Below, in pieces: positions 1,621 to 27,110 of a stretch of 28,912 nt of DNA; position 1 is the first letter of the stretch, and every line of letters begins with the position of its first letter. The notes below the pieces were generated by a model that was not told where the DNA came from, ran no database searches, and saw only the letters and a program-made list of their open reading frames with translations. A program made the position numbers and the translations under genes. Source of the stretch: a virus (lineage: Duplodnaviria > Heunggongvirae > Uroviricota > Caudoviricetes); IMG/VR virus record IMGVR_UViG_2579778564_000015, positions 1-28,912 of that record. One strand, 5' to 3'.

Positions 1621-1642
1621 TGGCTGGCATGAATACCAGCCA
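1621..1642 (-). terminator. Hairpin TGGCTGG-N8-CCAGCCA between J and the fibre gene
   Basis: 7-bp perfect stem. No clear U-tract, so a terminator role is uncertain; it could be an RNA-stability or processing hairpin. Confidence 0.4.
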
Positions 1643-1660
1643 TAAGTAATTACCTATCTA
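1639..1660. promoter_or_regulatory. Palindromic motif copy 1 (GCCATAAGTA-AT-TACCTATCTA), upstream of tail fibre
   Basis: 18 bp (1643-1660) identical to 21557-21574; 33 nt from the fibre ATG. Confidence 0.7.
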
Positions 1661-1745
1661 TTTTGTCTTATTCAAAAAAATTTTTCTACAGTGAACATTT
1701 CATGTACACATAAACGAACTCTTATTACCCCCAAAAAGGCAATCA

Positions 1746-4700
1746 TCAACTCACAAGAAATCCTGATGGGGATGACTTCGTTGTCGTGATTTGTATTCCA
1801 CTAGTAACATAACCTGCTGCTGTGTTCTGGACTGCCACTTCAATCCTAAATGTAAATTTGATATCGCCACCTCCAGAGTACATAGGCTTAAAAAAACTAA
1901 ATGGGTTAGATTTACCTGGATTTAAGACATCCTGCGTAACATAGCCAGAAGTTACGATCTCCACGCTTCTCCTGAAAATCTCCCCCCCATTAACAGAAAC
2001 AATCAGCGTACAAAGAGACCATGCGCCATTTTTACCACTACCCTCATACACCACCCCAGAATAGAAGACAGGTGGGATAGATATATGACGATCAAATGTC
2101 TGATCATCAAGCACAGTCACCGTTCTTTCTGTGGCATATCGTTTGTCTCCTATTTGTTGCAACGCGGGGAAAGTGACATTGTGGATCTTCACTATATCTC
2201 CAATTATTCTTTCCGCTTTTAACGTCCCGTTAATAGTACAAGTATCAGCAATAGTAACGTTATTTAACGTTCCTGAGTTTGCATCAATATTTCCTCTAAA
2301 TTTGCCGTTATTAAATTCAGGAGTTCCATCTTTGCGAATACACCAACCTGAAACACCTGCAACATAGTCGTAGGACTGAATTACGTTTCCAATTTTTGCA
2401 TCAGAAATCGTACCGTCCTTAATCCATGCACCGTTCATATAGGCTATGCCGTTTTCGATAACGAAAGGCGTTGTGACAGTTCCATTGACTGAGTTAACCA
2501 ACCCAAAGCGATCGGCTTGTACAAGGAACTGCGAAAGACCAGTGCTATCGATACCTAACGCGATACCTGCGACATATGTCTGACCACCTGCCGATGATGT
2601 TTCCATTTTCAGTGTCCAGGCTGCTGATACCTTTTTATTCGTGTCAGCAATAGCCTGAGCCTGTTCCTGAATTACAGCAGAATTACCATCAACCTCGGCT
2701 TTAATGGTATCAACTCGTTTACCAATGGCATTGTCAGCCTCCGCTCTAGCAGTTGATTCTGACGTTATTGCCGCACTAATATCTTTCCCTGTCTGGGCTT
2801 GCAGATTGCTAATTTGGCTTGCAAGAGCTGAATCCGAGTCGGTTCGTGCTTTCGTTTCAGTTGCTACAGCGGCTTTTATATCTTCGGCAGTTTGAGCTTT
2901 AAGAGTGCTGATTTGGCTTGCCAGTGCGCTATCAGCATCTGTTCTTGCTTGTGTCTCGCCAGCGACAGCGGCCTTAATATCATCCCCTGTCTGTGCTTGT
3001 AAACTAACAATCTGGCGTGCGAGCGATTCATCAGCTGTTACTCTTGCCTCTTGTTCAGCAATAATTGAGGCAGAAATATCATCGTTTAACTTAGTTTCCA
3101 GTTTACTTATATTGGTTGCCAAAGCCTTATCGGCTTCAACACGAGCAGTTGTTTCTTCGGTAATAGACGCTTTAATGTCCTCACCTATTTCAGCACGAAT
3201 TTCCTCTACTTTCGTTGCCATCGCAGTCATATCATCTGCAAAGGCCTTTTGAGTAGTGGCAATTTTCGCATTGTTAAACATCTGCTTATGCTGATCTTCA
3301 TCTTGTCGCAATGCCAGATCAATGTTTGTCTTAGCTAACGCCTCAATGTTCGTTGTAACTTCAGAACTTGCTCGATCAATTTCAGCAACCGTCTTTTTCA
3401 TCTCTTCAACGGCGGCAACGCTGTCATCAACGGATGACTTTAATGCCTCGATCTGCTTCGCATTTGCATTATCTCCTTCGACACGAGCTTCTTTTTCTTC
3501 TGCTACGAGAGCAGAAGCATTATCTATGGCAGCCTTGGCGGCATCTACAGCACCTGCTACTGCCTTATCCTGCTCGGATACTTTATTTTCCAGCTTAACG
3601 ATGGCTGCGTTAGTACTGTCTAATTGTTCTAACGCATCATTTACTTTATTAATCGTGCCATCAATTTCGGATTTGAGTTCAGTTTGTGCTGACTCCAGCT
3701 TATTACTGGCGATGGTAAGCTTACCATCCAGCTCACTTAGACTATCCTCCATCTCCTTATAAATTTCATTTACGGCATCTTGAGACGCTTTCGAGTTAAT
3801 ATCTTCCAGCAGTTCCTGCCCCAACTCCGAAGACGTGATCTTATCTTTCAAGAATGAAAGGATATCTTTCGTCATCGCCTCAGTACCCAAGTTTGAGTTG
3901 GGTGGACTAAGCATTCCTCGTTTGTTTGCAGCTTTGACCCAATAAAACCAAGTCTCACTATCGCCAAGACCAGAATGGGTAAACGTGGTGCTGGCGGCTT
4001 CTGCAATAAGCGTTGCCGTATCTAAATCGTTTGTTCTTGATGCGTAAACGTTAATGTGATCAAGGTCAACTGAGTCTGGGTTAACCCAATTAAGCACAAC
4101 ATTACGATAGTCCCCAACCGCTGTAAGAGACGTAGGTGATCCGGGTGGCGTCATCGTGCCAAGAACTTTATATACGGTACTGATTATTTCCGTTTTCTTA
4201 CCGCTGAACGATACCGCATAGAGCTGGATGTCATACTGCCCATTCTCGGCAATATTTTCTATCTCATACTGTTCCTCATTAACGCGAGCAGACTGCCAGT
4301 TGGATACATTATTTTCATCCGAACGGCGCCAGCTTATCCAGTATTCGGTAGACTTCCCTTCCCACGTCGCAATAAGTTTAATCGACAGATTACCAGGGCT
4401 GGAAATATAAGTTCCCTCAGTAACCTGTAGATTTGTAGGCTTTGAGTATGTTGGATCAAGTACCGTAGTATTTTGCGGTATTAGCGTAGCGCCATTATCG
4501 ATAGCCTGGTACTTTGACGGGTTGTTTTGTACTACCGTTACATCAAAAGAACCTTGATTATCACCCTGGGCCACATTAATCACACGTGCACACATTGGTT
4601 CGAGATCAGGTTCGCTGATCATCCACACGCCATTCAAAACAGGTTTATCACCCTGCAAAAGAGGCTTAGTGAACGTTACTTTGGAGATATTTTCACCTGT

Positions 4701-6377
4701 CTCCAGAATATCTCGCTCAATTAATTTGCCTTTTTCATTCACTATGCGAATGAAGCTATTGCTCTTTTTCAGAGATACTGGCGCGTCTAGTGTGATGCTG
4801 TTTTGCGTAAACGCCACGATACGGCCTGAGTTTCTCTTACCTGAGCGATACTTATTTTGAATAAGTACAGTTTCGCCAGGCATTAAAAATGCTGCATCAA
4901 GGCCTGCTGTAAACGTTATTACATCGGACTCCATCCTTGCTGTATAGAGCAACCAAAGCCCAACACGGTGCGCTTGTCCGCGACTTGTACATCCGAATGC
5001 AACAACTTCAGTCTTACGTTCGCCGTAGCGACGCATAGCCTCCTGATCTTCGACATACTCAATGTTCTGTTTATAGCCGTCATCCTTGTTGTTATAGGTC
5101 ACAAGCGCTACTGACGGGCGATCTTTTCTAGAAGAGCCCTTATGGCTAAACATGCCATCTTTAACGTTGGCATTAGTGAACATCATTACCGGATCGGACG
5201 GGCTATCCTGCATGACATTAACCATACCACCAGCCCAGAAGACCATACCTCGGAATGCGCCGGCAATATCCTGAATGAGACGATAAGCATCTTGACGACT
5301 GGTTATCTGGGTATTGATAGCAAATCGTTTCTCTTTACCGCCAAACCCATCGTCTACTTCTTCATCGCAATATCGACCTATCTGATACAGTTGCCCCAGA
5401 TCTATCATCGACTCACTAACAAATTGACCTAGCCCATATCGATGGTTTGTCAAAACGTCAAAAAGAATCCATGCAGGGTTCGATGAAGAGATGAGCTTAA
5501 ATGTACCGTCCCATACACCAACATAAGAGTTTGCGCTCTCATTGTAGTTTGAAGGTACACGGATTTTCATTCCGCGAACCAAATAAGAGCGGGATGGCAT
5601 ATTGCCACCGAACTGTTCTGAATTGACTTTGAGTCCGACCAGTGCAGAGTTCGGGTAATTCATTGGCGTATCGACAATCTCGCCGATAGAATCAACCCAT
5701 ATATCGTTATAAAGATATTGCGATGAGCTGTCATCGGTGATGCGAATTACACGTACTTTGTATGCGCGACCAGGTTTAGGTAGCTTAAATTCATAGCTAC
5801 GATAATAAACACCTGTCTTTTTGGCAGACAGTGAAATGATGATGCTATTTTCACCTTCTGCAATGACATCCTGAAAAGTTGAATCGCCATTGGCAATCTG
5901 AAACTTGTACTGGACAGTTGTGCCGTTCGTATCGCCAGACTTTTGATCGATGCTTCTTAGCGACGGGTATTTAAGGATAACCCTCACACGATCGGCTTCG
6001 TCGTTATCAACAGCAACGGTGACTTCATGTGTCTTTTTCAGCTGTATATTTACGGACTTAGGCGTTTCGACGAAATCGAAACCAGTCATTGGGGTCTGAT
6101 CTTGCGAACCGTCGCGGAAATCCCATGTTATACCGCTATAGTTAGTCGAACCGTCCTCGTTCATAATTGGCAAATCATCAATGAATATCGACTTTGCTCC
6201 ATCGACAAGCCCGCCAATAACGCCTTCACCGAGTAAATCGAGAATTGACGCCATAGCGCGAGAATTAACAGTATCGTCAGCCTCAACCGGAGTACGACTT
6301 GAGCCACTGCTTTTTTTACCACCGGCACCTGAAATTAAAAGCGGTAGCTTTTTCTTCTTGAACTGTTCCATGTTCAA
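1746..6377 (-). CDS. Tail tip / host-specificity protein, lambda J-like (1543 aa)
   Basis: GpJ-type N-terminus (DLLGEGVIGGLVDGAKSIFIDDLP), YPNSALVG, SSNPAWILFDVLTNHRYGLG, FnIII-like segments, coiled-coil repeats and a DUF1983-like region (SQFLVQADRF...PFVIENG); follows L-K-I. Confidence 0.92.
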   Translation of the reverse strand: MNMEQFKKKKLPLLISGAGGKKSSGSSRTPVEADDTVNSRAMASILDLLGEGVIGGLVDGAKSIFIDDLPIMNEDGSTNYSGITWDFRDGSQDQTPMTGFDFVETPKSVNIQLKKTHEVTVAVDNDEADRVRVILKYPSLRSIDQKSGDTNGTTVQYKFQIANGDSTFQDVIAEGENSIIISLSAKKTGVYYRSYEFKLPKPGRAYKVRVIRITDDSSSQYLYNDIWVDSIGEIVDTPMNYPNSALVGLKVNSEQFGGNMPSRSYLVRGMKIRVPSNYNESANSYVGVWDGTFKLISSSNPAWILFDVLTNHRYGLGQFVSESMIDLGQLYQIGRYCDEEVDDGFGGKEKRFAINTQITSRQDAYRLIQDIAGAFRGMVFWAGGMVNVMQDSPSDPVMMFTNANVKDGMFSHKGSSRKDRPSVALVTYNNKDDGYKQNIEYVEDQEAMRRYGERKTEVVAFGCTSRGQAHRVGLWLLYTARMESDVITFTAGLDAAFLMPGETVLIQNKYRSGKRNSGRIVAFTQNSITLDAPVSLKKSNSFIRIVNEKGKLIERDILETGENISKVTFTKPLLQGDKPVLNGVWMISEPDLEPMCARVINVAQGDNQGSFDVTVVQNNPSKYQAIDNGATLIPQNTTVLDPTYSKPTNLQVTEGTYISSPGNLSIKLIATWEGKSTEYWISWRRSDENNVSNWQSARVNEEQYEIENIAENGQYDIQLYAVSFSGKKTEIISTVYKVLGTMTPPGSPTSLTAVGDYRNVVLNWVNPDSVDLDHINVYASRTNDLDTATLIAEAASTTFTHSGLGDSETWFYWVKAANKRGMLSPPNSNLGTEAMTKDILSFLKDKITSSELGQELLEDINSKASQDAVNEIYKEMEDSLSELDGKLTIASNKLESAQTELKSEIDGTINKVNDALEQLDSTNAAIVKLENKVSEQDKAVAGAVDAAKAAIDNASALVAEEKEARVEGDNANAKQIEALKSSVDDSVAAVEEMKKTVAEIDRASSEVTTNIEALAKTNIDLALRQDEDQHKQMFNNAKIATTQKAFADDMTAMATKVEEIRAEIGEDIKASITEETTARVEADKALATNISKLETKLNDDISASIIAEQEARVTADESLARQIVSLQAQTGDDIKAAVAGETQARTDADSALASQISTLKAQTAEDIKAAVATETKARTDSDSALASQISNLQAQTGKDISAAITSESTARAEADNAIGKRVDTIKAEVDGNSAVIQEQAQAIADTNKKVSAAWTLKMETSSAGGQTYVAGIALGIDSTGLSQFLVQADRFGLVNSVNGTVTTPFVIENGIAYMNGAWIKDGTISDAKIGNVIQSYDYVAGVSGWCIRKDGTPEFNNGKFRGNIDANSGTLNNVTIADTCTINGTLKAERIIGDIVKIHNVTFPALQQIGDKRYATERTVTVLDDQTFDRHISIPPVFYSGVVYEGSGKNGAWSLCTLIVSVNGGEIFRRSVEIVTSGYVTQDVLNPGKSNPFSFFKPMYSGGGDIKFTFRIEVAVQNTAAGYVTSGIQITTTKSSPSGFLVS
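2685..3179 (-). repeat. Five tandem 33-aa (99-bp) degenerate repeats in J
   Basis: Units such as DIKAAVAGETQARTDADSALASQISTLKAQTAE, each with an E-x-x-A-R-x-x-x-D core. Confidence 0.8.
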
Positions 6378-6386
6378 AAAATCCTT

Positions 6387-6980
6387 TTACATCAGTTGAT
6401 CGATCGTGATGGAAGAACTAACCACCTGAGAACCGACCAAGATTTCCTCTCCATAAATAAGCTGTACGGGGTTTCCTTGGTTAGTTGTGTTTTGCGGACC
6501 GTCGAAGTAATACGAGTCCTTGTTATCTGCCTGACGAACAGCCTTGTTAGAGGCTTGTGGGGAAAGAAGCTGTGCTACACCGCCCATCATCAAGGACAGA
6601 CCAAGCGGAGCAAGTGCTGGGACAAAAACAGCGGAAACAACAAGCAAAGCAGCCCCAACAAGAGTCTGAAACCAGCCAAACGCTTTACCACCGCTTCCAC
6701 GAGGAACCGGTGTTATTCGGATCTTCGCAATATTGTTCGATTGCCCCATCATTTGGTATTCATTCTCATCAACCGACCATTTTTTCCCCTGCTTATTAGT
6801 GATTTGGATATGGTACTTGTCGTAGATTTTGATGTTGCGCTTCATCCATGCTTTAAAGCCTGGACGATTGGCTTCAATTAAATCCAACGCCTGTTTTGTG
6901 TTACTAACTTTTAAATGCCAATGGCGGCCGAAATGCTTGGACATAGGTCCGCCAAGTTGCACATGTACTAACTCAGACAC
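6387..6980 (-). CDS. Tail assembly protein, lambda I-like (197 aa)
   Basis: Hydrophobic Gly-rich middle, C-terminal YFDGPQNTTNQGNPVQLIYGEEILVGSQVVS; lies between K and J. Confidence 0.88.
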   Translation of the reverse strand: MSELVHVQLGGPMSKHFGRHWHLKVSNTKQALDLIEANRPGFKAWMKRNIKIYDKYHIQITNKQGKKWSVDENEYQMMGQSNNIAKIRITPVPRGSGGKAFGWFQTLVGAALLVVSAVFVPALAPLGLSLMMGGVAQLLSPQASNKAVRQADNKDSYYFDGPQNTTNQGNPVQLIYGEEILVGSQVVSSSITIDQLM

Positions 6981-7765
6981 GTCTCATCTCCCTTGAGCAA
7001 ATCCCTGTGGCGTAGATGATGGGTAGTATGTTTCTGGTACATTCCACCGTAATAAGCACGACAACTAAGACGATCGATCTGGTGATGCAAAATCATGTCG
7101 TTACCGATATACACTGCACAGTGATCAGGCATTTTCCCGTACTGAATGAAAAAGATGTCACCGCGCTGGGGCTCCGTTCCCGGCGCCAGACGAACAAGAC
7201 CTTCGTTACGGTAATTCTGATCTAAAATGTCGTTATCACCCGTGTACCATGACGGGATATGCAGATGGGCATTGGGGTTAAGCTCAACATTAAACTCACG
7301 CTTGAGATAGTCACGACACAACATCCAGCAATCGAAAACGCCAAACACATATGGGCGCCCGAGATAAGGCATTTCGAAGCCATCAGGGGTAATTACATTC
7401 ATCTCGCTGAAATGAAAATTGGCATTACCATCCACATTTTTTCGAACAGCCAGAATCATCCACGGAACCTCAGTAGCCTCACATCCAGCACGATCAGCGT
7501 CAGAAGCATCTGCTGACTCGTCAGTATGTGAATGCCAGATAGCGACCACCTCTCCTGCATCTTCTGCGGCAATGATGTCATCGACATGCATGACGAAAGT
7601 GTTTTGTGGGTTATCCGACACATTACGCGTTTCTATAAAGCGATATTTATCGCCGTTAGTACGCACCAGAAAACCACATGCTTCATTGGGGTAACGATTG
7701 ATGGCGCAAAGATAGATTTGCTCCATAACGCCAGATCCAAGCTCAGATAATGATTTAAGACCCAT
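6968..7765 (-). CDS. Tail assembly protein, lambda K-like (JAB/MPN plus NlpC/P60 domains, about 265 aa)
   Basis: YPNEACG, JAB motif WHSH...SDAD, FGVFDCW and DHCAVY. Start moved to ATG 7765 (GGAG upstream, overlaps the end of L). Confidence 0.9.
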   Translation of the reverse strand: MGLKSLSELGSGVMEQIYLCAINRYPNEACGFLVRTNGDKYRFIETRNVSDNPQNTFVMHVDDIIAAEDAGEVVAIWHSHTDESADASDADRAGCEATEVPWMILAVRKNVDGNANFHFSEMNVITPDGFEMPYLGRPYVFGVFDCWMLCRDYLKREFNVELNPNAHLHIPSWYTGDNDILDQNYRNEGLVRLAPGTEPQRGDIFFIQYGKMPDHCAVYIGNDMILHHQIDRLSCRAYYGGMYQKHTTHHLRHRDLLKGDETCLS

Positions 7766-8456: not shown

Positions 8457-8475
8457 ATTTCTTCCTTGAAGTTAC

Positions 8476-8500
8476 GTGCGCCAACCTCCTGTTAGCGCAC
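8476..8500 (-). terminator. Hairpin GTGCGCTAAC-AGGAG-GTTGGCGCAC (minus strand) between M and L
   Basis: 10-bp stem with one G-U pair; weak U-tract. Confidence 0.4.
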
Positions 8501-8511
8501 CATCATAATAA

Positions 8512-8533
8512 TAGATAAGTACATACTTATCTA
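8512..8533. promoter_or_regulatory. Palindromic motif copy 2 (TAGATAAGTA-CA-TACTTATCTA), upstream of L
   Basis: Perfect inverted repeat (11 bp including 8511 and 8534) with 2-nt spacer; TATTAT -10-like hexamer at 8510-8505 on the minus strand. Confidence 0.8.
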
Positions 8534-8543
8534 TAGGTGTAAA

Positions 8544-8879: not shown

Positions 8880-8890
8880 GACTCTTCCTT

Positions 8891-8919
8891 TAAATGCCGC
8901 CAATAATGGGCGGCATTTA
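8891..8919 (-). terminator. Hairpin TAAATGCCGCC-N7-GGCGGCATTTA after the tape measure stop
   Basis: 11-bp perfect inverted repeat directly after the stop codon. Confidence 0.55.
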
Positions 8920-14172: not shown

Positions 14173-14194
14173 TGGTTAAATTCCTTTTAGAAGC

Positions 14195-14967: not shown

Positions 14968-15012
14968 TGTTGGAAAACTCCTTTTTCCGTTAAATCAGCA
15001 CTTTTTGCGCTC

Positions 15013-15034: not shown

Positions 15035-15039
15035 TTTTA

Positions 15040-15423: not shown

Positions 15424-15424
15424 A

Positions 15425-16233: not shown

Positions 16234-16252
16234 CCACTTTCCCTCGTGATGA

Positions 16253-16327: not shown

Positions 16328-16330
16328 GCG

Positions 16331-17598: not shown

Positions 17599-17637
17599 AG
17601 TTTCTCGCTTATGAGCGGCAGTGCCGCCCAGGTAATA

Positions 17638-18069: not shown

Positions 18070-18085
18070 TCCTCGCTCCTACAAA

Positions 18086-18110
18086 AAGGGTGGGCGCTTA
18101 GCCCACCCTT
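18086..18110 (-). terminator. Rho-independent terminator after the major capsid gene
   Basis: Minus strand AAGGGTGGGC-TAAGC-GCCCACCCTT followed by TTTGT. Confidence 0.8.
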
Positions 18111-18115
18111 AAAAG

Positions 18116-18137
18116 TAGATAACTACATACCTACCAG
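18116..18137. promoter_or_regulatory. Palindromic motif copy 4 (TAGATAACTA-CA-TACCTACCAG), upstream of the Ig-domain gene
   Basis: Degenerate match lying between the capsid stop and its terminator. Confidence 0.6.
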
Positions 18138-18142
18138 TTAAA

Positions 18143-19024
18143 TTAAATTTTAACGTTAGTTAGAGCGGCAATCGCTTTGTCATGCTTGTTCGCAAGAGAG
18201 CAGTACCACTTAACACGTGTACGAACGGCATCTTTGTTCTGAACAGTACCAATATTCTCAACTACGATACCCGCATTCTCACCACCGTACAGACCAGTCA
18301 CGCCATTTTCTTCTGACAGATGTAAACCGTAAATGTCGGCAGCCGAACCGTCTTCAGTTTTTGGAATAAAGTCGTTAATAATAAACGGAATACCATTATG
18401 ACACAGCATAGGGCGACCGAAGTTTTCCATCATAATTTCTGACGGCCCTACGTTAACGGTACGAAGCAATGCGCGATACGCACGCAGATGCTCAGAACGC
18501 ATCATGATACAGTCGGCACCGAGATCTTTAATTGCATCGACCAGTTCATCAAACATGGAGAAGGTCATAGATGCTTTAGCAATATCGATTTTCTGATCGT
18601 TATGCATCAGCTTAGGAATGCCATCGAACGCTTTGGTATTCTCGGTAGAGTTACCCAAAATCAAATTACGACGGAACGCACGAGCCAGACCTTTCACTTT
18701 CTGGCGAACCTGGATCGCCAACTGGCTGTTAGTATCTGACATTGTAGTTGCCAAGAATTTATCGACATCAACGTCACCTGCCAGAATACGCAGCTTCGCC
18801 ACATGCTCGGTGAAGGTTGCCGCGCCTTCGGAGATGGTGTCGTTCACATCAATGAAGGTCGCTTCGCTCAGGGTAGCTTCACGGTTGTAAAGGTACGCTT
18901 TGGAGTCGATCTTCATGAACGGCAGAATGGCGAACAGATCATCGCGGTCGATAATAGTTTCGATCACGCCCTGTTCGAGTTCGTTGTTAGACAGCTTTTC
19001 AGCTTCTTCACGCAGTAATGGCAT
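18143..19024 (-). CDS. Major capsid protein (293 aa)
   Basis: Follows the scaffold, ends at a strong terminator; size and FDGI / RVKWY motifs fit a capsid protein without a delta domain. Confidence 0.85.
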   Translation of the reverse strand: MPLLREEAEKLSNNELEQGVIETIIDRDDLFAILPFMKIDSKAYLYNREATLSEATFIDVNDTISEGAATFTEHVAKLRILAGDVDVDKFLATTMSDTNSQLAIQVRQKVKGLARAFRRNLILGNSTENTKAFDGIPKLMHNDQKIDIAKASMTFSMFDELVDAIKDLGADCIMMRSEHLRAYRALLRTVNVGPSEIMMENFGRPMLCHNGIPFIINDFIPKTEDGSAADIYGLHLSEENGVTGLYGGENAGIVVENIGTVQNKDAVRTRVKWYCSLANKHDKAIAALTNVKI

Positions 19025-19049
19025 CTTTCATTTCCCTATGATTAAGATG

Positions 19050-19946
19050 TTACTTGAGTCCGATTTTCCCCAGACCGGAAGTCAACTTATCCATTGTCGA
19101 CCTGTTCTTCGGCTGGTTAACTTTATGGGTCGGTTTGCTGTTTGAACCGGCACCCTGCTTGGCTTCGCTGCGCATCAATGCGTCAGCCTCCGGATCAGCA
19201 CGCAGAATGCGCTCAATCGCGGATTCGAACGGTAACGGCTTACCTTCGCCGTCAACCAGAACTGCACGTTCCTTCTGACCGGCCGGCTTGTCATAACCAA
19301 CAACGCTACCGTCTTCACCCACTTCAAAATGAGAGCCGTAGATAACGCGTGCTTTCGCCGGTGTCATCAGAACCTTTTCACGCAGGAAGGTAGAGCCGCT
19401 GAATGAGGCGCCGACAGTCATTTCGACCAGCTGGGCTTTTAAGGCAGCGTTTTCACTCTCCAAAGCAGAGAATCGTTCGTCACGCTGTGCCAGCTCATGC
19501 TGATGAGCTTCGATCATCTGCTTTTTGACAGCATCGAACTCGCCTCGGCGTTCCAGTTCAGCTTGCTCCGCCTCACGGCGTGCATTTTCTGCGGCTTGTT
19601 CGGCGTCCAGAAGCTGACGAGCACGCGCCGGGTCAATGTCACCGTACTGCGCAAGCTGATCGGATAATGAACGCTCTTTTTCCTTGCGTTTCATATTCTC
19701 TTTCAGCAGGTCAGCGCCAGCTTTCTTAGACTTACGCAGCTCGGCCAGCAACTCTTCAGGAGTCAAACCAGCTAAATCGTCGTCTTCACCCTTCGGCTGC
19801 TCTTTTTGCTCACCCTGTTTACCTTGGTCTTTGGTGCCCTCCTCGCTATCACCAGCAGGAGCACCAGCACCTGTACCACCACGCTCATGCGATTCGGCTA
19901 CATCCATCAGGCCACGACGGGCCATAAGCATTTGCCACAGATTCAT
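19050..19946 (-). CDS. Capsid scaffolding protein (298 aa)
   Basis: Charged coiled-coil protein with a low-complexity N-terminus, between portal and capsid genes. Confidence 0.75.
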   Translation of the reverse strand: MNLWQMLMARRGLMDVAESHERGGTGAGAPAGDSEEGTKDQGKQGEQKEQPKGEDDDLAGLTPEELLAELRKSKKAGADLLKENMKRKEKERSLSDQLAQYGDIDPARARQLLDAEQAAENARREAEQAELERRGEFDAVKKQMIEAHQHELAQRDERFSALESENAALKAQLVEMTVGASFSGSTFLREKVLMTPAKARVIYGSHFEVGEDGSVVGYDKPAGQKERAVLVDGEGKPLPFESAIERILRADPEADALMRSEAKQGAGSNSKPTHKVNQPKNRSTMDKLTSGLGKIGLK

Positions 19947-19967
19947 AAAAATTCCTTTCGTTACTTA

Positions 19968-21548
19968 TCACTCGGTCTCTTGAGTAGATGAGTCCCCCAT
20001 TCCCTCGGGGTTTTCCTGCCCGCTTTCTTGGGCCTTGCCATGATGATAAGTAAGTACTGACTTATTTTCAAGGGTGTTAAGATCATTTTTGGGCGGAAAT
20101 TTCAAGAGATCTTTATCGAATTCTTTTTTCATCGCTTCGGAAATGTTTGGAAAGACCTTTTCAATGAGCATTTCCATCTGAAGCCGACGTACAGAATCAG
20201 GTGCCTGTAATAGAGCCAGTTTCTCAGCAACTAAAAATTCGTCTATTAGACCGCGAATATCAAAACTTTCAGGGTATGCGATGAGAGAGTGGTCTTCGTC
20301 AAGCTCGATCCCCATCCATTTCGCAGCCAGCAACATCATCTGACGTTCAGCTCTTTCTAGACGCTCCGCTTTTGTCACCAGCAAACTATTCACACGCTGG
20401 AAGTCATACATCTTGGCCGCGCCAGAAGAGTTATCGATACCTTGTGCGTTATCCTGCTTGGTCCGTTCGCCGGCAACACCAACGGAATGGTAGATCTCAT
20501 TAATTACCGTCTTAATAGTAGTTATGATCATCTGTGCCTGTTTTGGGTCTGGCGACAGATAGAACGGCTGATTCCCCCCCTCAGAATCGTAGGTGAAGAC
20601 GCGTTTTGTCCCCATTTCTAGTACTTTGGTGTGGTTATCATCCCCTGGCAGTAATGACTGAACCGGAATCGCTAACTGGCTGAATGTCTGATCCTGAATA
20701 ATTGCATCAAGATTCGACAGATAGTTAGCAACGGCGCGGTCAAGATAAGCGATATCATCTATCAACGACGGGCTAAAATATGGAGATTCGCTCTCCCCAA
20801 TGCAGTCCACAGGGAACACAGGCACAACGCCGAGATTATGTTCACCACAATCTTCAAGCACCACTTTTGTCTGACGACGCCCAGCTCCCTTCTTCATCTC
20901 TTCACGGAAAAGATACCATTCGTTTTGAGTCCACAGTCTATAACGCTGGTATTCCTGACCGGAAGAGGTGAAAGGGTCTTCGTCATCACGCGCAATCTCC
21001 ACAATAAGCGCCCACAGCATATTGCCGTCTTCATCCCACGCAACGTCGAGTAATTGCTGTGGTGCAATCCAGTAGGCGTAGGCGCGAGCATCTTTCTGCT
21101 TCTCATCCGCGATGGATTCAACATTGCCATTCATGGTGCTATCGACAACAACCCAGATACGGCCATAAATAGAAGACTGTAGGTCTATAGCCGCCATGAA
21201 GGCATCAATGGAAGAGTTCTGACGTGTAGCTCGTTTCCAGAAATTTCGAATCTGTTCAGGCGCCTCTTCCTGATTACGATGAATATCCTCTTTAAAGAGA
21301 TATTTGTTGATGAGATTCACTACTTCGCGAGTGTGATTAAAACGATAGGCGCGTTCCAGACGTTCTTTGAACTCCTGATCTCCCTCTTTAAAGTATCGGA
21401 AGATATTGTCATTAAACCAGGAACGCCCGCCAGCGTAGGTACTGGAGAGAAAATCCCAATGCTCTTTTTTCTTCTCATATTCTGGGTGGCGCCGTGCCAC
21501 CAGGTCTTTTATTTGTTTGTCGGTAAATTCCATTTTCTTTATTTCCAT
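19968..21548 (-). CDS. Portal protein (526 aa; alternative ATG at 21533)
   Basis: Position between terminase and scaffold, size, YAGG and SGAAKMYDF (SGxA-type) motifs. Confidence 0.85.
   Translation of the reverse strand: MEIKKMEFTDKQIKDLVARRHPEYEKKKEHWDFLSSTYAGGRSWFNDNIFRYFKEGDQEFKERLERAYRFNHTREVVNLINKYLFKEDIHRNQEEAPEQIRNFWKRATRQNSSIDAFMAAIDLQSSIYGRIWVVVDSTMNGNVESIADEKQKDARAYAYWIAPQQLLDVAWDEDGNMLWALIVEIARDDEDPFTSSGQEYQRYRLWTQNEWYLFREEMKKGAGRRQTKVVLEDCGEHNLGVVPVFPVDCIGESESPYFSPSLIDDIAYLDRAVANYLSNLDAIIQDQTFSQLAIPVQSLLPGDDNHTKVLEMGTKRVFTYDSEGGNQPFYLSPDPKQAQMIITTIKTVINEIYHSVGVAGERTKQDNAQGIDNSSGAAKMYDFQRVNSLLVTKAERLERAERQMMLLAAKWMGIELDEDHSLIAYPESFDIRGLIDEFLVAEKLALLQAPDSVRRLQMEMLIEKVFPNISEAMKKEFDKDLLKFPPKNDLNTLENKSVLTYHHGKAQESGQENPEGMGDSSTQETE
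20043..20064. promoter_or_regulatory. Palindromic motif copy 5 (ATGATAAGTA-AG-TACTGACTTA) inside the portal 3' end, upstream of scaffold/capsid
   Basis: One mismatch in the right half-site; 96 nt from the scaffold ATG. Confidence 0.55.
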
Positions 21549-21552
21549 TTAT

Positions 21553-21574
21553 TAGGTAAGTAATTACCTATCTA
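21553..21574. promoter_or_regulatory. Palindromic motif copy 6 (TAGGTAAGTA-AT-TACCTATCTA) at the terminase/portal junction
   Basis: Full consensus match overlapping the terminase stop codon. Confidence 0.75.
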
Positions 21575-22824
21575 GATCCACCAAGAATAACACGATTTTT
21601 CACCGGATACCTACGATGAACTGGATAGCCTAACGCATCTGCGCTGTGTTCTATACCGCCAGACTTATCTATATCGCGCGAACCTGGTTTGTATATGACT
21701 TTTTCAAGAGAGTCGATGAGATGTTTACACTTCGGATCGATATACAATCGTGTTTCACCAGAAGCACTCATCAACATGCGGTTAACCGCATTCACACGAT
21801 CTGCGATCGGCGGATGTTTCTTCGGATAATCTACGCGCAGGAACCCCTTCTCCTTGAAGATATCAACGTCTGATTCGCCTCGCGCGTGCTGACGATACGC
21901 ACCAGCAGGGTCAGGGAAAACCGTGACCTGTGATTTCCAGCGCCAGAATCGACGCTCCAACTCATCGCACACTTCTGCCGTGTTGGAAGAGAACAGCACA
22001 ACCTCGTCCACGGCCCACAACTCACCATTTGGCTGCGGCTGTAGAATAACTGAGGACATCGGGTCGATATTGAAGTCCTGTCCAACCCATACCGGTAGTT
22101 TTGGATTGAATTGTAGTGGCTTCACATGCACGTTTCGATCAAACGGGTAATAAACACGCCCGGACATGTTTTCGAAGCTTGCAAGATACTCCTGAGCGAA
22201 CGACTTCGGGTCCATATCATTCTTCGCGGCTTCGATTTCCGCAGTCGGAACGAACGGAGAGTCGGCGGTAACAAACTGCCAGCTCTTCCACTGGCCTTTG
22301 CGTTGCAGTTCCTTGTTCTGTCCTATAGTCCACAGTTTGTGGAACTCCGAGAAACCTTTCGGTGTACCGATGATAAGCGCGCCACCGCGAGTAGAGGACA
22401 ATGTCGGACGAAGCACCTTGTACCAGGTGTCAGCCTTCATATCCTGAAACTCATCAAGAACTACGAAGTGCAGCGCAACACCACGGAGCGTATCGGGTTT
22501 ATCGGCGCCTTTGAGCGCTATTTCCGATCCGTTCTTCAACACGATGGTCATCGTGGTGTCGTTTTTCTTCCGAACCCATTTACGCGGTAGAACTTCCTGC
22601 AGATCATCCCATAAGATCTGGCGAGCCATCTGATATGTCGGTGCAACGTACCAGACGCGTTGTTTCTTCTCTTTGGCTGCCGCACGGATGATGGTGGAGA
22701 TCGACAGCCGAGATTTACCCCAGCGTCGACCCGCACACACCACTTTGAAACGATGTGGAGACTGGAAGACTTGCATCTGCCCAGAATGCAGCTGCACGAG
22801 ACTCAGAGACGACGGGATGGACAT
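21568..22824 (-). CDS. Terminase large subunit (418 aa)
   Basis: Walker A VVCAGRRWGKS, Walker B VVLDE, GTPKG coupling motif, nuclease motifs GQDFNIDP and HSADALGY. Start moved to ATG 22824. Confidence 0.95.
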   Translation of the reverse strand: MSIPSSLSLVQLHSGQMQVFQSPHRFKVVCAGRRWGKSRLSISTIIRAAAKEKKQRVWYVAPTYQMARQILWDDLQEVLPRKWVRKKNDTTMTIVLKNGSEIALKGADKPDTLRGVALHFVVLDEFQDMKADTWYKVLRPTLSSTRGGALIIGTPKGFSEFHKLWTIGQNKELQRKGQWKSWQFVTADSPFVPTAEIEAAKNDMDPKSFAQEYLASFENMSGRVYYPFDRNVHVKPLQFNPKLPVWVGQDFNIDPMSSVILQPQPNGELWAVDEVVLFSSNTAEVCDELERRFWRWKSQVTVFPDPAGAYRQHARGESDVDIFKEKGFLRVDYPKKHPPIADRVNAVNRMLMSASGETRLYIDPKCKHLIDSLEKVIYKPGSRDIDKSGGIEHSADALGYPVHRRYPVKNRVILGGSR

Positions 22825-22826
22825 AA

Positions 22827-23468
22827 TCAATCTCTCCCATCTACTTCATCGCTCAACGCGCTAGAATCGCTATCAGCTTCGCTCAGAGCTTCCTCTTCAA
22901 GTGACTCAAGCAGATCATCATCAATCGACTCAGGCTCATCTTCTTCCTTACGCAGCTGCGCCACCTGAGATGGCGTAAGTTCGCCAAATACCAGGTTTGG
23001 AATTTCTTCTTCGTCGTTTTCTACACGATCCATGCCTAGTGCTTTCGATGAGATATCGAAACACTTAGCAAGCGTGCCACTTGCACGCTGAAGACTCTTC
23101 AGATCGTCTTCAATAGCAGCGAGAGGTTTGCCTTCCTTTTTAGCAGTAGCAACCTCGTGCATCACCATACGACCTAATGCAAAAGCCCAGTCATCATAGC
23201 GAGTACGGCGTTCTTCGATTTTATCTGCACGCGCTCTTGCACGCAGTTCAGCATCGGATTTGAGTGATTCTCGTACCATCTTTCCAACGGAATCGGCACC
23301 TTTCTCTAAGCCGCGCTTTTTAAAATGTCTGGATAGCGTTTCACGACGAATGCCGTACTCTTCTTCCAGCTTTGAGAGTGTGTACTCGCCTGATGTCCAC
23401 TTCGCTTCGGCTTCAGCCCACTCAGCTGGTGTCAGGCGAGTTTTACTCTCGTCTTTTTCTACAGTCAT
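22827..23468 (-). CDS. Terminase small subunit (213 aa)
   Basis: N-terminal HTH (TLSKLEEEYGIRRETLSRHF), helical middle, acidic tail; abuts the large subunit; GAGGG RBS. Confidence 0.75.
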   Translation of the reverse strand: MTVEKDESKTRLTPAEWAEAEAKWTSGEYTLSKLEEEYGIRRETLSRHFKKRGLEKGADSVGKMVRESLKSDAELRARARADKIEERRTRYDDWAFALGRMVMHEVATAKKEGKPLAAIEDDLKSLQRASGTLAKCFDISSKALGMDRVENDEEEIPNLVFGELTPSQVAQLRKEEDEPESIDDDLLESLEEEALSEADSDSSALSDEVDGRD

Positions 23469-23488
23469 AGATCCCTCTAAAACACACA

Positions 23489-23506
23489 GAGCACATCCTT
23501 GTGCTC
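23489..23506 (-). terminator. Hairpin GAGCACA-N4-TGTGCTC upstream of the small terminase gene
   Basis: 7-bp stem followed on the minus strand by TGTGTGTTTT. Confidence 0.45.
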
Positions 23507-23582
23507 CTAAACAATTTGTTTATAGATATTTCTAACTAATTTGTTTTCTGGGATGCTTAAATCAGAATTGAGTATTTTTCAA

Positions 23583-23642
23583 AGCCTGCTTCCGTATATA
23601 TATTTAATAAGTGATTTATTATTTAGTATACGGAAGCAGGCT
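23583..23642. repeat. 16-bp perfect inverted repeat AGCCTGCTTCCGTATA with a 28-nt AT-rich spacer
   Basis: Arms 23583-23598 and 23627-23642; spacer has no C and contains an inner TAATAA-N5-TTATTA dyad. Confidence 0.9.
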
Positions 23643-23664
23643 ATAAACTGACTCCCAGTTGAAC

Positions 23665-23931
23665 TTACATCACCAGTAACTTAGCTCTTGCCCGACCTAA
23701 TGTTGTCAGCCCCAGAGTGCGACGGTAGTAACCAGAGTCATCGCGCTGGCGACATATTCCTTTCTCAACCAGCCCTTTTTTCACCAGTGCGCGAATCGAA
23801 AACTGCATACTTTGTTTAGTTGTTTTGTACGGAAGCACTTCCAGCAATTCATCCAGATCGAGCAAGTGGCCACGTTCATGACCTAAATTGATGGTTTTGA
23901 TGATGTCTTTTTGTTTGTCGGTTAAAGTCAT
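23665..23931 (-). CDS. Winged-helix DNA-binding protein resembling the LexA N-terminal domain (88 aa)
   Basis: LTDKQKDIIKTI...SIRALVKKGLVEK...RRTLGLT parallels LexA LTARQQEVFDLI...HLKALARKGVIE...SRGIRL; no peptidase domain. Confidence 0.65.
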   Translation of the reverse strand: MTLTDKQKDIIKTINLGHERGHLLDLDELLEVLPYKTTKQSMQFSIRALVKKGLVEKGICRQRDDSGYYRRTLGLTTLGRARAKLLVM

Positions 23932-23940
23932 AGCAAATCC

Positions 23941-24840
23941 TTATGCCGGTAAAGCAATTTCTAGAGGTTTATCAAAAGGCTGTTTATCAAATGCCAGCAG
24001 TGGTAGTGTGTCTGGTAATTTTCGACCAAAATCAGGGTTGCGATACACGCCATATAGCGGAGATGTGAAGCTCAGATTATGAATATCCTTGAGTAGTTTC
24101 ACGATACTGGCCTCATCCACCAGACTGTCGGCAATGTCCTGAACTGTGGTACCGCGATTACGTCCAGCTTTGGCAAGAGAACTGTTCTTGTGATAGTCCG
24201 CAACCAGATCGCGTAGCGCACGACGACGACGAGGTTCGCTCATAGCTAATAGTTCTTTGACAATCGCTTCGTTATCGCCAGGGTCTGAACGGAAATGGCG
24301 CTGGAATACACGTAGAGCACTTTCATAGCTCTTCGGACGCTCAGGACGGATAAACTGGAACCCTGCTTTCATGGCGAACGGGTTGTATTTGCTCATTGAC
24401 GACTGGATCTCGATGATTGACCGGTCATGCATCCTGCTAACCAAGTTAATCATTCGATAGGAGACGCCGACACCGCGGTACTGAGTGTCCACAACGGAAC
24501 GGCTGATCACCGCAAAGTTGTTGTTCACGTACCGACCCCAATACTGGTTGGCCACAGTGGTATTAGAGGTTGGCTTCAGCTTAGGAAACATGCGATGGCG
24601 AGGCGCCAGAAGCAGTTTCGGGTAAGCCATAACCACGACACCCACCAGCCGGCCGTCCAGTTCGCAGCGGTAATACGTTGGCGCGAACGGCTTACCATCC
24701 GTCTTGTAATGCAGCGACTTCAGCGCGTGCCAGTCTTCAACCGTGCCTTTTGTAACGGTCATACGCTCCAGAAAGTCCAGATGACGCGGGAACTCTTCCG
24801 GACGGTAGCGTTTGATGATGACGTCTGCCATGTCGCTCAC
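23941..24840 (-). CDS. GNAT-fold (acyltransferase-like) protein (299 aa)
   Basis: Acetyl-CoA-binding motif A ISRSVVDTQYRGVGVS, later NPFAMKAGF motif, N-terminal HY. Confidence 0.7.
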   Translation of the reverse strand: MSDMADVIIKRYRPEEFPRHLDFLERMTVTKGTVEDWHALKSLHYKTDGKPFAPTYYRCELDGRLVGVVVMAYPKLLLAPRHRMFPKLKPTSNTTVANQYWGRYVNNNFAVISRSVVDTQYRGVGVSYRMINLVSRMHDRSIIEIQSSMSKYNPFAMKAGFQFIRPERPKSYESALRVFQRHFRSDPGDNEAIVKELLAMSEPRRRRALRDLVADYHKNSSLAKAGRNRGTTVQDIADSLVDEASIVKLLKDIHNLSFTSPLYGVYRNPDFGRKLPDTLPLLAFDKQPFDKPLEIALPA

Positions 24841-25091
24841 CTGCGCTCAATATTAGCGTTGATGAAGTCAAGACGAAGTGACTCCATCGCTCCAACCATG
24901 ACGTATGGGCGCCCACCTGAATGCCAGCAATCCAGAACGCTACCGTCACTATTGATAAGCAAAATCGCCATGCTTTGGCTTTTACCTTCTTTGGCATATT
25001 TGAGAGCTTCTTCAAGAAGACGTATAACCTCGGCATTGTTGTCATCAGTCTCTCTTGAGTGCTTCAGTTCTACAATTTTCAAATCAGGCAT
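24837..25091 (-). CDS. Hypothetical protein (84 aa)
   Basis: Overlaps both neighbours in an operon-like way. ATG 25091 preferred to TTG 25097. Confidence 0.6.
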   Translation of the reverse strand: MPDLKIVELKHSRETDDNNAEVIRLLEEALKYAKEGKSQSMAILLINSDGSVLDCWHSGGRPYVMVGAMESLRLDFINANIERR

Positions 25092-25722
25092 ATTCAACCT
25101 TCACTCGTTCTTTGTAGTGTTTGGTGATCTGCATATCCGGGCGCAGCGCGTTCTTCAGGTCTTCGTGGGTCGTCGCCACCATTACCGTCGCACCAACCTT
25201 ACGTGCGGCGCGCTGGAGATTTGAAGCCACAACCTGAGCGGTTACACGGTCGAGAACAGCTCCAAATTCGTCGGCTGCCCAGACTTTGGCGCCGGACTCA
25301 ATCAGCTTGGCGATCTTCAGACGGTATTTCTGGCCGTCAGACATTTCGGATGGCTTGCGCACAAAGAGATAGGCATCATTCAATCCGGCCATAGATAGCA
25401 GCCCTAGCGCTTCGCTGGTGGTTTTCCCCAGCTGGTCGATGACGTTAACCTCATTGTCGAAGGTAAAATCATCGATGGAGGCCACAGAAAGCCCTTCATC
25501 TTTCATCTGGCGTTGCAGATCGCGCAGCACAACGGATTTGCCTGAACCGGATTGGCCGGTGATGTACACTACATCGCCCTGCTTCACTTCCAGCGTCAGA
25601 TTGTCGTAAAGCGTCCACTCTTTTTCGTCCAGACCAAGACCGAACGATTCGGCAATCTCCAGCGTGCGCGTGGTTTTGTTCACGCGGGTCTGAAACGATA
25701 CGTTGATGGTGTATTTGCTCAT
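25084..25722 (-). CDS. Stand-alone ABC-family ATPase (212 aa)
   Basis: Walker A GQSGSGKS, signature-like MSDGQ, Walker B AADEF, D-loop GAVLD, H-switch TTHED; no membrane partner nearby. Confidence 0.9.
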   Translation of the reverse strand: MSKYTINVSFQTRVNKTTRTLEIAESFGLGLDEKEWTLYDNLTLEVKQGDVVYITGQSGSGKSVVLRDLQRQMKDEGLSVASIDDFTFDNEVNVIDQLGKTTSEALGLLSMAGLNDAYLFVRKPSEMSDGQKYRLKIAKLIESGAKVWAADEFGAVLDRVTAQVVASNLQRAARKVGATVMVATTHEDLKNALRPDMQITKHYKERVKVEYA

Positions 25723-26387
25723 GCAGCCAGCTCCCCAGAAGAAACTTTCTCCGCATACGCCACGAAGGCATCTACCCCGCTCTCTCCCGTGATTTCTTCC
25801 ATGTGGGCAAGCAAATCCCCAACCACAATGGCGGAGCCAGCAGGGAGCGTTTTAAAGCCCAATACGTCGATAACACGGACTTCTTCAGAGGCCACTTCAC
25901 GACTGATCTCGGTGTGCTCTTCTTTCTGGCGTTCCGTTTCTTCACCCAGATCGAGCACCAAAGATCCTGTTTCCATTTCTTCAGTCATGCTGCCGACGAG
26001 AACGTTCAGCTCGCGCTCTTCAAAACCGAAGACCTCGACATCTCCCAGCACCAAGGATTCCAGTTCCTGCTGCAATTTGATGGCGTCGTAGTCAATACTG
26101 GCCAAGCGGTTGTCTTCCAGACGCTTCGCCTTCACTTCTTCTTCGCTCAGATCATCGCGCACGATGACAGGCACATGCTCAAGACCAGCCAGAAGTGCCG
26201 CCTCGCGACGACCGTGGCCAGTAATGATGACGTCGTTCTTGTCGATCGTGATCGGCTGGTCAAAACCGCGCTTTTTGATGGCGGCAGCCAAGTCGCGGAT
26301 CTGCTGTTCGTCATGTTTTTTGGCGTTCATCTCATACGGGATGAGTTCTGTAGGGTTTCGATAGACGATTTCAAAGTTTTTGGTCAT
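25719..26387 (-). CDS. ParB/Srx N-terminal-domain protein (222 aa)
   Basis: LIPYEMNAKKH...GFDQPITID...IITGHGRREAA. Start moved to ATG 26387 (AGGAG RBS, TAATG overlap). Confidence 0.88.
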   Translation of the reverse strand: MTKNFEIVYRNPTELIPYEMNAKKHDEQQIRDLAAAIKKRGFDQPITIDKNDVIITGHGRREAALLAGLEHVPVIVRDDLSEEEVKAKRLEDNRLASIDYDAIKLQQELESLVLGDVEVFGFEERELNVLVGSMTEEMETGSLVLDLGEETERQKEEHTEISREVASEEVRVIDVLGFKTLPAGSAIVVGDLLAHMEEITGESGVDAFVAYAEKVSSGELAA

Positions 26388-27067
26388 TACATACGCTCCT
26401 TGTAGTAGTCGACCAGCCACACCAAGGCTTCACCGGCGTTCTCCATTTCGTTACCGGTATTGATTCCCTGCTCTTTGATGATGGTTTTGATGGTGTCGGC
26501 GACGCGATCTGACGCATCAAACGTCACTTTGAAGCGCATCGTCTGGTGTTCAGCGCCGACTCGCTCGGTTTTCTCGCGTTTGTCCTCATCGATCGGCTCG
26601 TCATCGCCACGGGAGAGCGCTTCCAGCGCTTCAAGATCGATAACGGACGCTTTTGCGAGTGTTGCAGCCATTTCGTCGTCATACGGGGCGATATCGGACA
26701 ATCGGTAGTCGATTTCAGACTGGATTTCTTCGATTAAGCGCTGCAAAGCGACCTGATCGTCTTCGCCGTAGCGCTCGTTATCGACCAGGGACATCTGTTT
26801 GGCTACCAGGTCGTTAATTTTGCCCACAGAGATGACTGGAACCGTTGAAATCCCCTGCTCCATCGCGGCACGCCAGCGGTGTTCACCACCGAGGATCTCA
26901 AAAACGTCGCCGTCCAGCTCCCGCGCCAGAATTGGCTTAAAAAAGCCCAATTTTTCGATAGAGCCTTTCAGCTTTTCGAAGTTTTGCGCCCCAACGGAGT
27001 TGGTATTCCAGGGATTCGGACGCAGGTTAGCGACTTCCACCTGCAGAATCGTAATTTTCACATCCAT
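26387..27067 (-). CDS. ParB/Srx N-terminal-domain protein (226 aa)
   Basis: LRPNPWNTN...SIEKLGFFKPILAR...ILGGEHRWRAA. ATG 27067 preferred because ATG 27085 overlaps a -10-like hexamer. Confidence 0.88.
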   Translation of the reverse strand: MDVKITILQVEVANLRPNPWNTNSVGAQNFEKLKGSIEKLGFFKPILARELDGDVFEILGGEHRWRAAMEQGISTVPVISVGKINDLVAKQMSLVDNERYGEDDQVALQRLIEEIQSEIDYRLSDIAPYDDEMAATLAKASVIDLEALEALSRGDDEPIDEDKREKTERVGAEHQTMRFKVTFDASDRVADTIKTIIKEQGINTGNEMENAGEALVWLVDYYKERM

Positions 27068-27083
27068 AATTCTGATACAATCC

Positions 27084-27110
27084 ATTGTATAAGTACTTAC
27101 TTACTATAAT
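27084..27110. promoter_or_regulatory. Divergent promoter region with motif copy 7 (TGTATAAGTA-CT-TACTTACTAT, 27086-27107)
   Basis: Perfect core flanked by TATAAT (27105-27110, plus strand) and TACAAT (27089-27084, minus strand). Confidence 0.75.

Follow-up and report, generated by a model that had tools for sequence, protein, structure and literature searches.

A 22-bp palindrome recurs throughout a phage-plasmid genome of 92,912 bases, IMG/VR virus record IMGVR_UViG_2579778564_000015, with seven copies in the window studied here (bases 1-28912 of that record) and 24 copies in the record as a whole. We propose, at a probability of roughly 0.45, that these palindromes constitute the dispersed operator of a repressor encoded by the element itself, with an XRE-family protein as the first candidate for its reader and a MarR-like winged helix-turn-helix (wHTH) protein as the second. 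That the reader acts as a repressor rather than as an activator, and which protein it is, we infer as the most likely assignments, repression being judged by the position of the sites.

Judged by its sequence, the source element is a phage-plasmid of the SSU5/pHCM2/pMT1 type. The window is approximately 80% identical at the DNA level to SSU5-type phage-plasmids (Escherichia phage CMS-2020a, Cyrano, Klebsiella pJN2-26 and Salmonella phage SSU5). The terminase and XRE protein of the record are 99.8% and 100% identical, respectively, to those encoded by plasmid CP119474.1 of Salmonella Newport, and the terminase matches more than 1000 plasmid records. That the SSU5 supergroup is related to the AB group, and more distantly to RHEph10, was noted by Pfeifer et al., who did not mention promoters or repeats (PMC7969092). 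Nearly all genes of the window lie on the minus strand, in the order fibre, tail, head, portal, TerL and TerS, followed by a ParB-ParB-ABC-small-GNAT-wHTH operon. The helicase gene lies on the plus strand, divergent from the ParB operon.

Number, placement and conservation of the palindromes

All seven palindromes reported by the first-pass annotation of the window, which had read them as a candidate late-gene regulon, are present:

1639-1660: copy 1, before the tail-fibre gene (start 1605, minus strand); 21.0 bits; the orthologous SSU5 site is at 21932
8512-8533: copy 2, with perfect 10-bp arms, before minor tail gene L (start 8456); 31.4 bits
15013-15034: copy 3, before the Ig-domain major tail gene (start 14967); consensus match, matrix hit and three-genome alignment
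18116-18137: copy 4, in the stretch from the major capsid stop codon to the post-capsid terminator; consensus, matrix and three-genome alignment
20043-20068: copy 5, a pair of overlapping registers within the portal gene (3' end); three genomes agree at 21 of 22 columns
21553-21574: copy 6, at the TerL/portal junction; consensus match, matrix hit and three-genome alignment
27086-27107: copy 7, in the divergent gap between the ParB operon and the helicase gene; core match and matrix hit

As had been described, the copies precede the fibre (1605), L (8456), major tail (14967), Ig-like (18069), scaffold/capsid (19946) and portal genes and occupy the gap from which the ParB operon and the helicase gene diverge. 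One copy, at 20043, falls within the 3' end of the portal gene and the other six are intergenic; the 2-nt spacer varies (AT, CA, TA, CA, AG, AT and CT, in order) while the arms are kept.

A consensus of 20 specified bases is matched with no more than three mismatches by six of the seven sites and gives no match in 100 dinucleotide shuffles; site 27086 falls outside this cut-off and matches the 14-base core ATARGTA-NN-TACYTAT with one mismatch. A symmetric weight matrix was built from the best sites and used, at a threshold of >12 bits, to scan the whole 92.9-kb record. There were 26 hits, compared with 0.96 in shuffles. Two of these hits (23602 and 50898) belong to a different, long-stem element and were set aside, leaving 24 true copies where about one is expected by chance; 17 of them are additional to the seven in the window. 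The centres of 16-18 of the 24 sites lie outside open reading frame (ORF) calls, even though such DNA makes up only 8-11% of the record (binomial P ~1e-12), a non-random placement. The next start codon is usually 40-70 nt from the site centre and the previous stop codon 4-25 nt away.

Genes outside the window that follow a copy, named after the SSU5 annotation, include those for a methylase, nrdA, thyA and the SSB/exonuclease/recombinase and MoxR-DnaE blocks. The mixed-orientation region of accessory and plasmid-maintenance genes between 27.1 and 45.9 kb holds a single weak copy, at 34670. The site set marks lytic genes generally, both early and late, rather than virion genes. Because the whole-record scan puts copies before early and replication genes, a late-only regulon is rejected, and the earlier designation proved too narrow, given that recombination and nucleotide-metabolism genes are preceded by copies as well. 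Its alternative wording, an activator site or a repressor operator, remains the right pair of options. Many copies in the non-coding gaps of lytic operons, with an accessory region that is nearly free of them, are the pattern of a dispersed operator.

The sites are conserved in relatives, a point on which the first-pass annotation had made its claim depend. SSU5 has 26 true sites at corresponding places. Six sites are orthologous among this genome, SSU5 and pJN2-26, and 111 of their 132 motif columns (84%) are identical, compared with 808 of 1122 columns (72%) in the flanks, which are mostly coding; at copy 2 (8512), 19 of 22 columns are identical in SSU5 and pJN2-26. Distant relatives with the ParB-ParB-ABC-GNAT-TerL-portal gene order and the MoxR and DnaE genes have palindromes of their own, phased in 4-bp steps, at the same junctions. 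Besides the named plasmids and phage listed first below, further relatives were obtained from a terminase-profile scan of species genomes, which returned contigs of ~100-115 kb:

Acinetobacter pABTJ2 (terminase 60% identical): TTAGTAAG-CG-CTTACTAA, about 35 copies
Aeromonas pKAM329_1 (terminase 53% identical): GATCAGTAAACACTTACTGATC, about 24 copies
Rhizobium phage RHEph10 (terminase 57% identical): GTCAGTCAATATTGAYTKAC, 35 copies
Paracoccus element: AGTAAG-YR-CTTACT
Methylocystis, Magnetospirillum and Massilia elements: AGTCAG-NN-CTGACT-type palindromes
Paraburkholderia element: AGTCAAAACTGACT
Halomonas and Chelativorans elements: GTAAG-N6-CTTAC

The palindrome family spans elements of alpha-, beta- and gamma-proteobacteria. 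In four of the five lineages with listed sites (Paracoccus, Methylocystis, Halomonas and Paraburkholderia) a copy lies directly after the TerL stop codon, and in Chelativorans, where the TerL match is partial, a copy lies just beyond the matched part. The position right after the TerL stop is also occupied in pABTJ2 and RHEph10, and the ParB-operon/helicase junction of copy 7 is occupied in pABTJ2 (72753), the Aeromonas plasmid (90380) and RHEph10 (106196). No such palindrome was found in the 50 of 61 kb examined of Pseudomonas phage YMC11/02/R656, which has only TerL in common.

Site anatomy, promoters and candidate readers

On the sense strand the conserved sequence reads AAWA-RR-TAAGTA-NN-TACTTA-YC-WW, and no further sequence information is present up to 35 nt downstream of it. 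The arms are phased in 4-bp steps, their invariant bases being a TA step each 4 bp. Because of this phasing two palindromic registers coexist, TAAGTA-NN-TACTTA (for example at 8512, 15013 and 21553) and GTAAG-NN-CTTAC (for example at 34679 and 85292 of the record and 27478 of SSU5), and half-sites are spaced by 2 or 6 bp.

As the palindromes lie in transcribed gaps, from a stop codon to the next gene, and a 9-10-bp AU-rich stem is possible, they could be imagined to act in RNA, as a transcript hairpin serving as processing site, stabiliser or terminator. Pair statistics argue otherwise. No compensatory changes were seen; G·U-compatible and A·C pairs across the arms on the sense strand stand at 20:23 in this genome and 26:31 in SSU5, giving no sense-strand preference for G·U; and the variable R/Y positions form Watson-Crick pairs in only 7 of 24 sites, below the expectation from independent choice. 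GC hairpins that neighbour some copies do covary, whereas the arms of the palindrome are kept as sequence rather than as pairing. The RNA hairpin reading was rejected on these grounds and is left with a probability close to negligible. With neither covariation nor a G·U strand bias, the palindrome is best described as the duplex site of a symmetric protein; the pair statistics and the placement together support the proposal of the first-pass annotation that a dimeric protein binds DNA here, at sites that go with gene starts.

Canonical sigma-70 promoter matches are rarer in the whole window than in dinucleotide shuffles (12 vs 26.5 and 10 vs 16.5). At four places the palindrome can be seen to overlap a core promoter. 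Copy 5 fills the spacer of a minus-strand promoter, TTGAAA(20071-20066)-17-TATCAT(20048-20043), and the same arrangement, TTGAAA-17-TATCAT, encloses the palindrome at record position 73303. Copy 7 (27086) lies between outward-facing TACAAT (27089-27084, minus strand) and TATAAT (27105-27110, plus strand) hexamers, and the fourth case is the XRE promoter described below. At most other sites the promoter elements, including the -35, are unrecognisable. The arm TAYCWW, which has a fixed offset, scores as a -10 at 11 of 24 sites in the sense direction and at 9 of 24 in the antisense direction. The -10-like hexamers that had been placed beyond the core in the first-pass annotation belong to this arm, and since it is equally -10-like on both strands they are part of the symmetric site. 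A -10 at a fixed distance downstream was considered and rejected, as there is no information beyond the motif in this genome or in SSU5.

Other elements show other arrangements. The pABTJ2 palindrome runs straight into TATAAT, in register; in the GC-rich Aeromonas plasmid -10-like hexamers occur on the sense side only (8 vs 0); and in RHEph10 the motif abuts the Shine-Dalgarno sequence. In the Paraburkholderia element (9242 and 11286), AGTCAAAACTGACT is followed by TTGACA-17-TACATT or AATACT, which places the palindrome near -45, upstream of a full promoter. These arrangements point to a strong link of the palindrome to transcription starts, with a geometry that is not uniform.

Every occurrence of the palindrome family is accompanied by three conserved DNA-binding proteins:

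85335-85721 of the record, outside the window: XRE/HTH_3 protein, 128 aa
23665-23931, minus strand: wHTH protein, second-choice candidate reader, 88 aa, AlphaFold pLDDT 88.5
26387-27085, minus strand: ParB-like protein 1, third-choice candidate reader, with a ParB_N domain

Homologues of the XRE protein are found in pABTJ2, the Aeromonas plasmid, RHEph10 and about 1000 plasmids of the family. The homologue in Cyrano is annotated as a "putative repressor" (CYRAN_45) and is among the genes transcribed in the Cyrano lysogen (PMC9928086). The promoter region of the XRE gene (record 85230-85334) consists of TTTACA-16-TAATAT followed directly by the palindrome CGGTAAGCACTTACC, and also carries the half-sites AGATAAGTAACTT, AAGTACTT and TAGATAAGTCTTTAC. 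The block formed by TTTACA-16-TAATAT and GTAAG(C/T)ACTTACC is near-invariant among three genomes (this one, pJN2-26 and Y. pestis pMT) that have diverged in the DNA around it. The XRE gene thus has a copy of the site at its own promoter in three genomes, as would an autoregulated repressor gene. The recognition helix of the XRE protein is retained between 63%-identical variants that share the same operator, and the protein is predicted to bind the site.

The XRE gene is absent from SSU5, together with the neighbouring integrase gene: SSU5 (at about 41776-42760) lacks approximately 5.5 kb found within 84751-91128 of the record, comprising the genes for the XRE repressor, integrase, glutaredoxin and others, and has a tRNA-Asn where the record carries the XRE/integrase segment. 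The lack of this segment fits the description of SSU5 as virulent (PMC5427195).

The wHTH protein that the first-pass annotation had pointed to at 23665 is real, its structural model having the fold of a minimal MarR-type winged helix (TM 0.71-0.76 to MarR, MepR, AdcR and FabT). Its gene lies just before terS in all 19 of the 19 lineages tested with an iterative profile. No clean covariation was seen between its recognition helix and the half-site type (AGTAA vs AGTCA). ParB-like protein 1 is 37-40% identical in all four distant groups, and its match to Spo0J (1vz0) covers query residues 13-161, beyond the N-terminal domain. The protein at 28712, which had been proposed as a ribbon-helix-helix candidate, has no match to a DNA-binding family.

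A phage sigma factor was also considered as the reader and rejected. A sigma-70-family gene is annotated between MoxR/CobS and DnaE in pABTJ2 and RHEph10 and was not found in SSU5-type genomes, and is therefore not required. The MoxR-DnaE interval of SSU5-type genomes contains only a 67-aa ORF (record 80942-81145, minus strand), which has its match in the Cys-rich N-terminal regions of two proteins, RHEph10 gp046 and the one encoded at 18870-19550 of pABTJ2.

Repression weighed against other readings

Under the proposed repressor mechanism, one element-encoded dimer would read about 24 copies (25-40 in relatives) at the heads of almost all lytic gene blocks and would thereby keep a lytic genome of approximately 100 kb silent during plasmid life, much as the C1 operators of P1 or the stoperators of L5 do. 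The bound repressor would occupy the promoter spacer or -10 region and, at junctions within long operons, would block read-through; the XRE protein would shut its own promoter via the conserved copy at the transcription start. Repression is favoured because sites overlap the spacer or -10, because a copy lies at the start of the XRE transcript and because copies lie at junctions inside operons. Several observations weigh against it. SSU5 lacks the XRE gene and has all of its sites intact, where a pure repressor operator should be dispensable, although the loss of XRE may be recent. The -35 is unrecognisable at most sites and sigma-70-type promoters are depleted, so that the promoters may need an activator. 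The XRE gene is co-oriented with the lytic genes in RHEph10 and the Aeromonas plasmid, and the two Paraburkholderia copies lie just upstream of TTGACA, outside the promoter. Finally, the palindrome lies upstream of a hairpin or terminator at several late junctions, which is an odd order for a promoter; the order of palindrome and then terminator after the capsid gene is poorly explained by any promoter model.

The same missing -35 elements and depleted canonical promoters would suit an activator box, at which a phage dimer, most plausibly the wHTH protein, recruits host RNA polymerase to a -10-only promoter in the manner of Lpa, the centre of the palindrome lying about 18-22 bp ahead of the start. 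The arm TAYCWW is itself -10-like, the pABTJ2 palindrome runs into TATAAT, the -10-like hexamers of the Aeromonas plasmid are on the sense side only (8 vs 0) and the RHEph10 motif abuts the ribosome-binding site. Moreover, the wHTH protein is universal, has a conserved recognition helix, is encoded where lpa sits in P1 (gene order from PMC10695390) and is retained, along with the sites, in SSU5. However, early and late genes share one site, so an activator could not set their timing, and in SSU5-type genomes the -10-likeness is equal on both strands. The copy at the XRE promoter is downstream of the -10, and some copies immediately precede terminators. A dimer that binds within the spacer nearly always represses, and most proteins of the MarR fold are repressors. 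Activation is the main rival of the repressor reading, and we regard it as somewhat unlikely. A role for ParB-like protein 1 is quite improbable. This KorB- or Noc-like protein would load at parS-like palindromes and silence or organise the replicon, possibly with the small ABC ATPase, and it does have a ParB_N domain, a Spo0J match extending to query residue 161, 37-40% identity across all distant groups and an operon that starts at a palindrome. The variable centre and two half-site spacings are nevertheless unlike parS, OB and NBS, whose centres are invariant, the sites are strictly at gene heads rather than scattered, and SSU5 has a separate ParA-type partition system.

The sites might instead be read by a host protein, the nucleoid-occlusion factor SlmA, recruited for division control or as a borrowed repressor, as the GTAAG-NN-CTTAC form fits the SlmA-binding sequence (SBS). 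The specificity of SlmA for each half-site is G, T, purine, A, G, pyrimidine (PMC3020112). Sites that obey this rule perfectly number two in this genome (34679 and 85292) and three in SSU5, where ~0.1 are expected, and 11 in pABTJ2, one in the Aeromonas plasmid and none in RHEph10; sites with one mismatch number 13 in this genome and 17 in SSU5, compared with 2.7 expected. Against this excess, approximately 90% of the sites in this genome break a critical SBS position (2 of about 25 qualify), relatives with AGTCAG half-sites cannot be SBS, and a test of four elements for a gene of their own for a SlmA-like protein found none. Among the host genomes, those of Yersinia, Kluyvera, Morganella, Xenorhabdus, Halomonas and, unexpectedly, Paraburkholderia carry the SlmA equivalog NF007015, and those of Acinetobacter, Paracoccus, Chelativorans and Methylocystis score below its cut-off. 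Perfect sites are commonest where the host lacks SlmA (3 per 21 kb in the Acinetobacter element, 4 per 21 kb in the Paracoccus element and 11 in pABTJ2, with Acinetobacter geminorum as proxy for pABTJ2's own host, which was not searched for SlmA) and rare where it has SlmA (none in Yersinia, Morganella and Xenorhabdus, one in Kluyvera). Site counts and host distribution disfavour SlmA as the general reader, which we consider highly improbable; cross-binding of SlmA at the few perfect sites in enteric hosts, including the one at the XRE promoter, is possible. The paucity of perfect SBS sites in SlmA-bearing hosts could reflect avoidance in this sample, which is small and not phylogenetically independent.

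A broader extension of the repressor proposal is that the palindrome with its 4-bp phasing is an ancient control code of a superfamily of ~100-kb phage-plasmids. One dimer encoded by the element would read it at each lytic junction, with fixed copies after TerL and just ahead of the post-capsid terminator. The ancestral form of the code would coincide with the SBS, and in SlmA-bearing hosts it would have been respaced or broken, which would avoid or tune the capture of SlmA. We think this distinctly unlikely as a whole. If it is true, a superfamily that includes the pHCM2-type plasmids of S. Typhi and the pMT1-type plasmids of Y. pestis would be run by that one code.

Neighbouring structures and comparison with known systems

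Three of the palindromes in the window are followed by hairpins or a terminator:

8476-8500, minus strand: GC hairpin after copy 2, -17 kcal/mol
14997-15011, minus strand: hairpin after copy 3, with compensatory changes among three genomes
18083-18110, minus strand: intrinsic terminator after copy 4, -20.8 kcal/mol, followed by a T-run

The stem of the 8476-8500 hairpin differs in sequence in SSU5 and pJN2-26 and its pairing is retained through compensatory changes, while its loop contains AGGAGG. As judged from these changes, the hairpins after the 8512 and 15013 copies are real RNA structures. The order of palindrome and then terminator after the capsid gene recurs in five distant lineages, with the palindrome 5-12 nt before the terminator. 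A general rule that a hairpin follows the palindrome was rejected: a strong downstream hairpin is present at only 4-6 of 24-26 sites, with no enrichment over random segments.

The long-stem element set aside during the matrix scan is a 60-bp sequence found at 23583-23642 of the window and at about 50885-50940 of the record, with a GC-rich stem (cctgcttccgtat ... atacggaagcagg) and an AT-rich loop of 26 nt. There are two copies in this genome and three in SSU5, one of the latter at the extreme end of the linear SSU5 record as deposited, immediately ahead of terS. The element is distinct from the palindrome and is a candidate packaging or terminator element. Elsewhere in the record, a CobT-like "porphyrin biosynthesis" gene is represented by two ORFs (82477-83853 and 84005-84751), compared with a single 757-aa gene in the near-identical CP119474.1; this split may be a frameshift, a pseudogene or an assembly error.

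Phage-plasmids of the SSU5 type are very common in hosts that include Salmonella, E. coli, Klebsiella, Enterobacter and Yersinia pestis, and can carry resistance genes (PMC9600943). The switch between silencing and lytic growth in these elements has not been described, and an operator word at ~25 junctions with three candidate readers makes it directly testable. The palindrome could also serve as an annotation key for transcription units across the whole superfamily.

In agreement with the first-pass statement that no description was known for this phage group, none was found for the motif in the openly readable literature on SSU5, pHCM2, pMT1, pABTJ2 and RHEph10. As a concept, a dispersed set of operators has precedents in P1, L5 and RK2. 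The cluster A mycobacteriophages L5 and Bxb1 have about 25-35 copies of their site in short intergenic gaps of early and structural operons, and their repressor has been proposed to stop both initiation and read-through. The palindromes resemble these sites in number and in gap placement across early and structural operons. In contrast, the L5/Bxb1 stoperators are 13 bp long, asymmetric and orientation-dependent, whereas the sites described here are symmetric palindromes of 18-22 bp with two spacings, and the hosts and proteins are unrelated. KorB recognises dispersed palindromes of 13-16 bp, with 12 OB sites in the IncP plasmid RK2. As with KorB and Noc/ParB, palindromes are found plasmid-wide here, one dimer could coordinate many operons, and an operon encoding ParB-family proteins starts at a palindrome. 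Unlike KorB of RK2, the centre and spacing vary, the sites lie at gene heads only, and they number about 25-40 rather than 12. The operators of P1 C1 are asymmetric. The Noc site is likewise a dispersed palindrome of the 13-16-bp class (PMC3020112). The E. coli SBS is GTGAGTACTCAC, and the GTAAG-YR-CTTAC form satisfies its published specificity; SBS in E. coli lie outside promoter regions (PMC3020112), unlike the palindromes described here.

P1 is, like this element, a plasmid prophage with many copies of one short site across its genome. It has 11 late promoters, each with a -10 and a conserved 9-bp inverted repeat bound by Lpa, and lpa lies just before the terminase genes (PMC10695390), as the wHTH gene does here. 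The analogy with P1 late promoters drawn in the first-pass annotation nonetheless fails in two respects, as early genes have the sites too and SSU5-type genomes show no -10 that is tied to one orientation and a set distance. P1 has separate classes of early and late sites, whereas here one palindrome appears to serve both, with the -10-like hexamer lying within its symmetric arm.

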